Virus record (IMG/VR): IMGVR_UViG_3300033412_000009
Location: 5,434-69,433 of that record
From: a virus
Lineage: Duplodnaviria > Caudoviricetes
Reading direction: 5' to 3' (one strand)
DNA: 64,000 nt
Part shown: one piece after another, positions 27,812-30,082 of the stretch
How the letters are laid out: the number at the start of each line of letters is the position of its first letter
Position numbering within the stretch: the first letter of the stretch is position 1
Notes under the pieces: model-generated
Databases searched by the model: none
The model's input: only the letters and a program-made list of their open reading frames with translations
Told to the model about the DNA's origin: nothing
Translations under genes and position numbers: made by a program

Positions 27812-30082
27812 ATGAGCGCGATCCCGCGCTACGTCTCGACCGCGCCCGAGGCAGCCGCGCGCATCGCTGGGTTCGTCTTCGGTGATGGCAACCCGGACCA
27901 CATCGACAACCCGCTCGGCTCCGTCCTGGCCTTCACCGCGCTGGCGACGACTTCCTGGACGGTCAACGAGTGTGTCCGCTGCGCCGCCATCCTCGGCTGG
28001 ACCGCTGGCGTCGACTACCGGATCGCCTCCAACGGCAACTTCATCTGCCGCCGCGACTCGCTCTACGCGGCGCTCGGGATCACCGACTCCGCCCACGACC
28101 TGTACCACCGGGCGCTGAACCCGACCGGCACCTTCACGCCGACGAGGGTCCAGGTCGAAGCGTTCAGCGCCTCGTTGATCGAGACCGAAGGCTCGTTCTC
28201 GACGAACCCGCCGAAGTGGTTCGACGATGCCCGCGGCGGTGACTACGACCAGCGCATCGACGCTCTCGTGCTCACGCTGAACACGCAGAGCCTCGGGGCG
28301 TTCCGCTCCGGCGTGGCCGTCAAGGTTCCGCTGGTAGCGACCGATGCCTTCCCGATGCCGCTGATCTCGGCTGCGCGCTACCCGGGTGACACCCCGGCGG
28401 ACTGGCCTGACGCTCCTCCCCCGCCGCCCGACACGACCCCGCCCGCCGTGCCCGTGGGACTCACGTTGACGCCAGGCAACGCCCAGATCGTCGTCACGTG
28501 GACGGTCAACACCGAGCCCGACCTGGCGGGCTACATCCTCTACCGCGACGGCAACACCGAGGTCTACATCGGGGCGACCCCGTCGTTCCTCGACACCGGT
28601 CTCACCAACGGCACCGAGTACTCCTACCAAGTCGCCGCCTTCGACGACGACGAGAACGCCAGTGTCCTCTCGTCGCCCAAGTTCGCAACTCCGGTTGCGC
28701 CGGGACCCGGCCCGGACGTCACGCCCCCTGACGCCCCGGCCGGGCTCTCTGGATCTCCCACGTCGACAACCGTGTCGCTCTCCTGGAACGCCAGCGCGGC
28801 GTCCGATGTCGTCAGCTACCGGGTGTACCAAGCGGCGAGCCTGATCGCCACCGTGACCGCGCCGAGCACCCACTATGTGGTTACCGGCCTGACACCGTCG
28901 ACGGTGTATCCGTTCAGGGTGACGGCCGTCGACTCGGCAGGCAACGAGTCCACGTCGACCGGCTTCATCGCGGTGACGACGCTGTTCGGCACGGTCGGGC
29001 CGCCCGAGATCACCACCGAGCGCATCCAGATCGTCTCCTCGATCGGCTGCCCCAACAGCTACGACGTCTACATCCTGGACCGCTCCGGCACGATCGCGCT
29101 GCGCCAGCTCTCCTTCACGGCGTGCTCGTGGGAGCGGGTCACCGACGACATCTCGAAGGCGCGCGTCAAGCTCGACCTGGCGAACAACCCGGGATGCTGC
29201 GCCGAGATCGAGGGGCTCGTCCGCTACGGCTACGAGATCGGCATCTACCGCGACTCGGTGATCGTCTGGCAGGGTCCCGTCGTCGACCTGACCTACGACG
29301 GCTGGGACATCGAGATCAGCGCCGAGGACAAGATGGGCTGGCTGAAGGTGCGGCCGATCTGGAACCAGCTCGACTACCCGGACCCTGGCGAAGAGGCGGC
29401 CATCGTCTTCAACGATGTCATCACGAATGCCATGAGCAGGGACAACGTCCCGGGATTGGTTGCAAATGCAACTGCCACCGGCGTGAGGGTGATCCGAACC
29501 TTCGTGCCGAACCCGCCGCAGATCGCCTTCGACGCCGTCCAGGAGCTGTCCCGCACCGCGGTGGACTACACGATGGTCGGCCCCAACATGACCGCTGGTT
29601 CCTTCGTCGTGCCCGCTCCCCCGATCGCCTACATCACCGACCAGGCTCTCGTCGGGCTGCCGTCCGTCGAGTTCCTCGGCTCCAACTTCGCCACTCAGTG
29701 GTTCGTCACCGGCGACCCGGAGCAGGATCTCCTCGGGACCTACGGCGGCATCGACCCCGACGTCGGCCTCGTCGTCCGCATCGCACAGGAGGACGACATC
29801 AAGGACCAGGCATCGCTCGACCAGAACGCCAAGTCCCGCTACGAGCTGTCCTCCGGCCTCCTCGTCTCCGGTGTCGACCTGACCCTCGATCCCACCGCGC
29901 CGATCCCCGTCGAGCTGATCTGCCCCGGGCAGACCTGGGATCTTCGCCTCACCGACTCCTGCGTACCGCTCGTGGGCCGCTTCCGCCTGAAGACGATCTC
30001 CTTCGATGTCAGCGCGTCCGACGGGCTCGCCGAGGTCGTGACGGCCAGCCTCCAGCCGGTCGGCACTGAGCTGGTCGAATAG
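27812..30082 (+). CDS. Baseplate hub-like minor tail protein with N-terminal LAGLIDADG-like domain and two FN3 domains
   Basis: [10 protein letters not shown] and [13 protein letters not shown] about 100 aa apart; [10 protein letters not shown] / DLAGY.LYRDG / [11 protein letters not shown]3 motifs; C-terminal [19 protein letters not shown] hub domain. Confidence 0.75.

Follow-up and report, generated by a model that had tools for sequence, protein, structure and literature searches.

LAGLIDADG homing endonucleases of the intein type, such as PI-SceI (the VMA1-derived endonuclease), PI-PfuI and TliVMA, carry two motif helices, each of which ends in an acidic residue. The fold has also been domesticated repeatedly, and to our knowledge all its domesticated roles are nucleic-acid jobs. 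They include those of RNA maturases and the regulator WhiA (PMC3384342), as well as mating-type switching by HO (PMC7282813). Here we describe a predicted LAGLIDADG domain at the N-terminus of a putative tail hub protein of 756 amino acids (aa), encoded by an uncultured soil phage (Caudoviricetes; IMG/VR record IMGVR_UViG_3300033412_000009). The analysed stretch of DNA, 64,000 nucleotides long (positions 5,434 to 69,433 of the record), is further referred to as the window. It comprises most of a 69.4-kb viral contig with a G+C content of 66% and an estimated completeness of 95%.

Hub proteins with additional domains are known from siphophage Tal proteins and "evolved" VgrG spikes, where a gp27-like hub carries an accessory or effector domain; these extensions are C-terminal and consist of lysins or toxins. 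In the protein studied here, in contrast, the extension is N-terminal and is predicted to have the LAGLIDADG fold. A preliminary reading of the window made from the sequence alone (further, the sequence-only reading) had proposed this fusion and knew no precedent for it, and our literature searches likewise found no description of phage tail proteins that carry a LAGLIDADG domain. Inteins of actinophages have been surveyed, with cases in tape-measure and other genes, and a fusion lacking the Hint domain is not reported in that survey (10.1101/2025.01.02.630785).

Predicted fold of the N-terminal domain

The structure of the N-terminal domain was modelled by AlphaFold2 on the alignment of 18 homologues (A1). 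The resulting model is confident, with a predicted local distance difference test (pLDDT) of 91 and a predicted template modelling score (pTM) of 0.90; the model from the single sequence alone has low confidence (pLDDT 34). Secondary structure elements assigned to the former by DSSP are, for the N-lobe, helix 11–25, strands 26–32 and 38–43, helix 50–61, strands 69–71 and 77–80 and helix 81–88, and, for the C-lobe, helix 112–125, strand 134–138, helix 143–159, strands 164–166 and 169–171 and helix 174–179. One strand of the C-lobe is weak or missing. The motifs IAGFVFGDG (18–26) and SASLIETEG (119–127) are nearly invariant in the family and form the last turns of helices 11–25 and 112–125. The acidic residues of the two motifs, D25 and E126, occupy the positions of the metal ligands of active LAGLIDADG enzymes and are 101 residues apart, in agreement with the spacing of about 100 aa and the two retained acidic positions noted previously.

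The best VIA-align match of the model is PI-SceI (Z 12.2, root-mean-square deviation 3.3 over 159 residues, 16% identity), residues 9–200 of the model being aligned to residues 202–411 of PI-SceI, that is, to the endonuclease domain only. WhiA (Z 11.2) and I-DmoI (Z 11.1) come next, with I-Tsp061I and PI-PfuI among the matches down to Z 9.8, and all 50 matches listed are LAGLIDADG proteins. Foldseek search against the PDB yielded I-DmoI, WhiA, I-Tsp061I and PI-SceI. When 48,161 chains were searched independently of Foldseek, ranks 1–17 were occupied by LAGLIDADG proteins (Z from 11.6 to 4.5), followed at rank 18 by the highest-scoring unrelated chain (Z 4.5). Named matches in the search of viral models are mostly large enzymes of the intein-hosting type, or proteins annotated as intein, DOD or LAGLIDADG. 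The ESM Atlas feature search was used as a lead only; every named neighbour there is a LAGLIDADG_3 cluster (0.88–0.89). Given the structure prediction, the positions of the motifs and the embedding lead, the proposed fold stands: as modelled, residues 9–200 form a genuine LAGLIDADG endonuclease fold, contained in one chain and highly diverged.

I-DmoI and I-Tsp061I (Z 10.8–11.1) have the same size (about 190 aa) and topology as the hub head. The motif-1 pattern G-x-x-x-G-D-G of the head presumably resembles that of I-DmoI, and by register (aligned ranges 9..190 and 5..190) D25 and E126 would correspond to I-DmoI D21 and E117. A conserved lysine is contributed by the β1-β2 loop of each lobe, K43 and K130 in I-DmoI (PMC3384342). 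From the secondary-structure register and this description, K135 is a candidate counterpart of the C-lobe active-site lysine of I-DmoI; by the same register the head appears to lack a counterpart of the N-lobe lysine. It further differs from I-DmoI and I-Tsp061I in that its strands are not positively charged and one C-lobe strand is missing. Compared with the endonucleases of the intein type, the head has neither a Hint domain nor a DNA-recognition region, is acidic rather than basic, and is fused to a virion protein instead of being spliced out.

WhiA (DUF199) from Gram-positive bacteria is a domesticated LAGLIDADG fold, as the hub head may be, and both are fused to other domains. The surface of its N-lobe is negative (PMC3384342), and the N-lobe hairpin of the head, judged by its residues, is acid-rich and contains no basic ones. 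Unlike WhiA, the head keeps D25, E126 and K135 and sits on a virion protein, and it has no counterpart of the C-terminal helix-turn-helix of WhiA, Pfam having found neither HTH_WhiA nor WhiA_N in the hub protein.

Charge was assessed for all family members. The isoelectric point (pI) of the core is 4.9–5.7 in all 18, the four strand segments contain 4.4 K+R vs 4.4 D+E by sequence counts, and no member has a single K or R in the N-lobe hairpin (residues 26–43). The sheets with which LAGLIDADG proteins contact DNA are uniformly positive (Taylor and Stoddard, PMC3384342); by pI and strand charges, a positively charged β-sheet surface of this kind is not seen in the head. The acidic pI, the strands without net positive charge, the hairpin without basic residues and the missing C-lobe strand speak against canonical DNA binding. 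Nuclease activity may be possible, since D25, E126 and K135 are retained.

Sequence profiles do not recognize the domain. It matches nothing in Pfam and NCBIfam (E up to 10) or in PHROGs (E up to 0.1), and the Pfam scan of the 18 family members gave no match to the LAGLIDADG families PF14528, PF00961, PF03161 and PF14527. With E up to 10, PF14528 matched nothing in the record of this phage, nor did it match anything in five related records. No PDB sequence was matched by phmmer with the single sequence or by a search with a profile of six sequences. Tblastn of the domain against 50,697 records of cultured phages (E up to 10) returned just two chance matches to tail fibres, and no relatives emerged when 185,579 prokaryote genomes were scanned with a pattern. 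The exhaustive phmmer search of 1.84 billion representatives produced three true clusters at 50% identity and one chance match, protein P0008 (1737 aa, 22 matched stretches), which was rejected because a short C-x-x-C segment had aligned by chance with tandem repeats. The collection clustered at 90% identity yielded 17 proteins, all of them metagenomic. Among proteins of 72–352 aa, none matches the domain profile as a stand-alone form.

Conservation, architectures and the N-terminal slot of the hub family

Despite identities down to 46%, 38 positions are invariant across the 18 sequences. They include E124, K135, R141 and R148, and also G24, G26, N27, T42 and L88; D25 and E126 are each present in 17 of the 18 members. 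The metagenomic protein P0016 (755 aa) has lost both acidic residues (D25A, E126Q) and retains the rest of the module, including K135.

The hub gene was compared with five orthologous loci. Identity is 74–81% for the N-terminal domain, 60–64% for the FN3 region and 56–65% for the hub; the rate of nonsynonymous substitution (dN) in the N-terminal domain is roughly one half of the rate in the hub, and its ratio to the synonymous rate (dN/dS) is 0.25–0.35. This ratio, together with a G+C content of third codon positions of 0.91 across residues 1–200, indicates that the N-terminal frame is coding. For the 16 members that bear a hub (120 pairs), the identities of the N-terminal domain and the hub correlate (r 0.67), and the N-terminal domain is the better conserved of the two in 72% of pairs. 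Since the divergence of the domain tracks that of the hub, the two are co-inherited. By these comparisons of identity and substitution rate, the N-terminal domain evolves under stronger purifying selection than the hub.

Three architectures contain the module, its boundaries being identical in each (from an I-P-R-x-V motif to W-P-D/E), and the conserved tail at residues 183–200 forms the C-terminal boundary in all three. Residues P5, R6 and V8 are conserved also in the proteins that carry the module internally. Fourteen proteins have the first architecture (head, Pro linker, two FN3 domains, hub); these are the orthologues of the studied gene, 744–764 aa long. The second is represented by P0007, a metagenomic hub orthologue of 1098 aa in which a phosphoesterase of family PF04185 (phospholipase C / acid phosphatase type) follows the LAGLIDADG head and precedes the two FN3 domains; P0007 is a candidate envelope-degrading tail enzyme. 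The third architecture is found in P0006 and P0022, metagenomic proteins of about 1000 aa with 34% identity over the full length, where the module lies 254–297 residues in, BNR/Asp-box-like repeats are present and the hub domain is absent. Scans of viral contigs with P0006, P0007 and P0022 found no contigs encoding them.

The statement that intein splicing residues are absent was borne out: Pfam scans revealed no Hint family, the alignment to PI-SceI is confined to residues 202–411 of the latter, only eight residues precede the fold, and the Pro linker and FN3 domains follow it. Polymorphism in the presence of the module was not seen among the orthologues, all 14 of which carry it, this being a small sample. 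By its context the domain appears to be neither an intein nor a mobile homing endonuclease gene.

The remaining part of the protein was assigned by homology. The in-frame fusion described earlier, in which a Pro linker and a pair of FN3 domains lead to a hub, was confirmed by the translation, Pfam, NCBIfam, PHROGs and tblastn, the hub starting near residue 404. Residues 420–753 match phrog_837, minor tail protein (E 5.4e-25), and tblastn against cultured Streptomyces, Arthrobacter and Gordonia phages aligned residues 399–755 only, to proteins annotated as minor tail proteins. Whether related hub genes lack the N-terminal 400 aa or so had been posed as a question; such genes exist and are the closest ones in cultured phages, namely gp28 of Streptomyces phage Xkcd426 (350 aa) and gp23 of Streptomyces phage Abt2graduatex2 (342 aa), which correspond to residues 404–755 only. 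As a further lead, the ESM Atlas model of the C-terminal part has template modelling scores of 0.70–0.83 to clusters with Sipho_Gp37, Prophage_tail, GpP/Gp44-like and YqbQ. The hub part has no match among PDB sequences.

A profile scan with the hub domain identified 32 viral loci (numbered with the letter L). Of these, the three closely related ones have the LAGLIDADG head, and the remaining 29 are without the module. Many of these 29 have N-terminal extensions of 275–705 aa, as measured by ORF (open reading frame) length, which is an overestimate in high-GC DNA. Ten such ORFs were scanned for domains: Ig/FN3-like domains precede the hub in eight of them, and three begin with a Gly-rich domain (PF12810). 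Hence, according to these distant relatives, an N-terminal extension is frequent in the hub family, and several extensions have the order head, spacers, hub. Hub-family ORFs of about 1000–1090 aa with extensions longer than 600 aa and Ig/FN3-like spacers are found at loci L029, L035, L039, L043, L046 and L048. At L029, L039 and L046 the first 400–600 residues match no Pfam family. At L035, L043 and L048 the extension begins with the PF12810-like head; these three share with the studied protein the hub family and the plan of head, Ig/FN3 and hub, the named head being Gly-rich and not LAGLIDADG. The LAGLIDADG fold so appears to fill the head position of this hub family in one small clade.

Possible functions of the head

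Polyglycine-rich domains of the PF12810 kind are receptor-binding heads in phage adhesins. Since some distant hub relatives have such an adhesin-type head in the same slot, the LAGLIDADG head most likely acts at the cell surface. We hold, with a probability of roughly 55%, that it is an exapted, outward-facing head on the tail hub. The domain would descend from an intein-type or free-standing homing endonuclease, many of which occur in actinophages, through a single capture at the base of a small phage clade. From every hub subunit an arm composed of the head and the two FN3 domains would project away from the tail tip, and the head, as the distal end of this arm, would bind an envelope component at the cell surface, possibly via the conserved metal site, or process it. 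Occurrence of the module with the same boundaries in two other kinds of multi-domain proteins, one with a phosphoesterase and the other with BNR-like repeats, fits a portable accessory module. The sequence-only reading had suggested that the domain could bind or cut nucleic acid during ejection. No positive evidence for this was obtained, and the putative outward position, the acidic character and the strands lacking the positive charge of DNA-contact sheets (PMC3384342) disagree with it; the head is probably neither a homing enzyme nor a DNA cutter during ejection.

Several points weigh against the surface-acting head. Receptor-binding heads usually evolve fast, whereas the LAGLIDADG head is the slowest-evolving part of its protein. 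The outward-facing arm is something we infer from the domain order. Identification of the C-terminal domain as a tail hub, based on homology to a PHROG profile, tblastn matches, the order of genes and the model provided by the ESM Atlas, is well supported but not proven, and the source phage is uncultured. Finally, the retained acidic pair and K135 are what would be expected of an active enzyme, while domesticated non-nucleases such as WhiA have lost their catalytic residues (PMC3384342).

The last point leads to the possibility that the head is an active site-specific DNA endonuclease or nickase, either a virion-borne weapon against the DNA of the host or of competing phages, or the product of an in-frame homing gene which would act in the cytoplasm late in infection and spread with the 5' end of the hub gene. 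We consider this doubtful, although it would account for the presence of D25 and E126 in 17 of 18 members each and for the invariance of E124 and K135. P0016 bears on it in both directions: as the sole protein with altered acidic residues it has lost both (A25, Q126), as if they worked together, and it nevertheless retains the module without them. By Z, the head is structurally closest to intein endonucleases that are catalytically active (PI-SceI at Z 12.2 and 16% identity), and actinophages are rich in LAGLIDADG inteins, also in their tape-measure genes (10.1101/2025.01.02.630785). On the other side stand the acidic core in 18 of 18 members, strand segments without net positive charge, an N-lobe hairpin lacking basic residues and hence the N-lobe lysine of I-DmoI, and the reduced C-lobe sheet. 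Nor does the distribution fit, given the co-inheritance with the hub, the lack of presence/absence polymorphism among the orthologues and the failure to find free-standing copies; moreover, a head on an FN3 arm would presumably stay outside the cell during ejection. A rarer variant would have the same metal centre (D25, E126, K135) cleave phosphodiester bonds of a cell-wall polymer.

An unlikely alternative is that the head serves only for structure or docking; it might anchor the collagen-like fibre or contact the distal-tail protein, with the fold used as a rigid scaffold. This alternative agrees with the conservation pattern, as modules making virion contacts at the tail tip are usually conserved, and the LAGLIDADG domain of WhiA is thought to have shifted to protein-protein contacts (PMC3384342). 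However, it leaves the retention of the acidic pair and K135 unexplained, and the module is present also in proteins devoid of the hub domain (P0006 and P0022). It is very improbable that the domain is the decaying remnant of an inserted intein or homing endonuclease and has no function for the phage, although the family is very small, no sequence profile tried detects the domain, and a bare hub suffices in cultured relatives. The suggestion of a captured relic had been made in the sequence-only reading and is contradicted by purifying selection: no other region of the protein is as conserved as the domain, whose dN/dS is 0.25–0.35 and which has 38 invariant positions across 18 sequences. A confidently predicted fold and the recurrence of the module with identical boundaries in three architectures are likewise at odds with decay.

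The locus and its implications

Coordinates of the hub gene, its domains and the neighbouring tail genes are given in Table 1. The hub gene starts with an ATG located one base past the stop codon of the distal-tail-slot gene. Around residues 200 and 390–405, a search for internal starts preceded by a ribosome-binding site gave none. The related contig L002 has the same order of tail genes as the window.

Table 1. Features of the tail locus in the window (positions are those of the window).
Feature	Position	Strand	Basis or remarks
ORF of 1839 aa in the tape-measure position, directly preceding the gene in the distal-tail slot	21050..26569	+	ORF list; gene order
Distal-tail-slot gene, 413 aa; phrog_838 (function unknown)	26569..27810	+	PHROG match; no Pfam family
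Whole hub gene, 756 aa: predicted LAGLIDADG-fold head, Pro linker, two FN3 domains, putative hub	27812..30082	+	ORF/translation
Predicted LAGLIDADG-fold domain, residues 9–200, two pseudo-symmetric lobes	27836..28411	+	AlphaFold2 model, structure searches
LAGLIDADG motif 1, residues 15–27; D25 at 27884–27886	27854..27892	+	End of helix 11–25
LAGLIDADG motif 2, residues 116–129; E126 at 28187–28189	28157..28198	+	End of helix 112–125
K135, invariant lysine at the start of a C-lobe strand; candidate counterpart of the I-DmoI C-lobe active-site lysine	28214..28216	+	18/18
Conserved module tail, residues 183–200	28358..28411	+	P183, R189, Y190, P191, W198, P199 invariant
Pro-rich linker, residues 201–214	28412..28453	+	Translation
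Two FN3 domains, about residues 215–298 and 303–392	28454..28987	+	Pfam fn3 E 1.3e-13, two stretches; NCBIfam CbhB FN3 region 200–391
Putative hub / minor-tail domain, residues 404–755	29021..30076	+	phrog_837, tblastn, ESM Atlas lead
Collagen-like tail fibre gene, 666 aa, downstream of the hub gene	30092..32092	+	Pfam Collagen E 2.9e-12; tail-fibre PHROGs

In the collagen-like fibre, residues 44–123 carry G-P-T/G-A-T repeats, and the BclA C-terminal domain is matched weakly (E 0.019). The distal-tail-slot protein contains 22 cysteines (5.3%), with C-C at its C-terminus, and the ORF in the tape-measure position contains none. Virion proteins are not usually so rich in cysteine, and the composition points to disulfide or metal clusters. 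Long ORFs on the opposite strand of the hub gene (27767–30484, minus strand, 905 aa) and of the tape-measure-slot gene (21407–26557, minus strand, 1716 aa) were discounted as evidence of genes, such frames being expected at 66–68% G+C.

The domain family escapes every sequence-profile library tried and was found only via the motif and structure prediction, and thus represents an annotation blind spot. The hub family of actinophages to which the protein belongs has a variable slot for an N-terminal arm and could be mined for more head domains. Should the head have retained DNA cleavage, it would represent a new type of virion-borne nuclease and the first LAGLIDADG nuclease known in a phage particle. 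A LAGLIDADG domain built into the virion in an adhesin-like head slot would extend the uses of this fold to virion or cell-surface functions.

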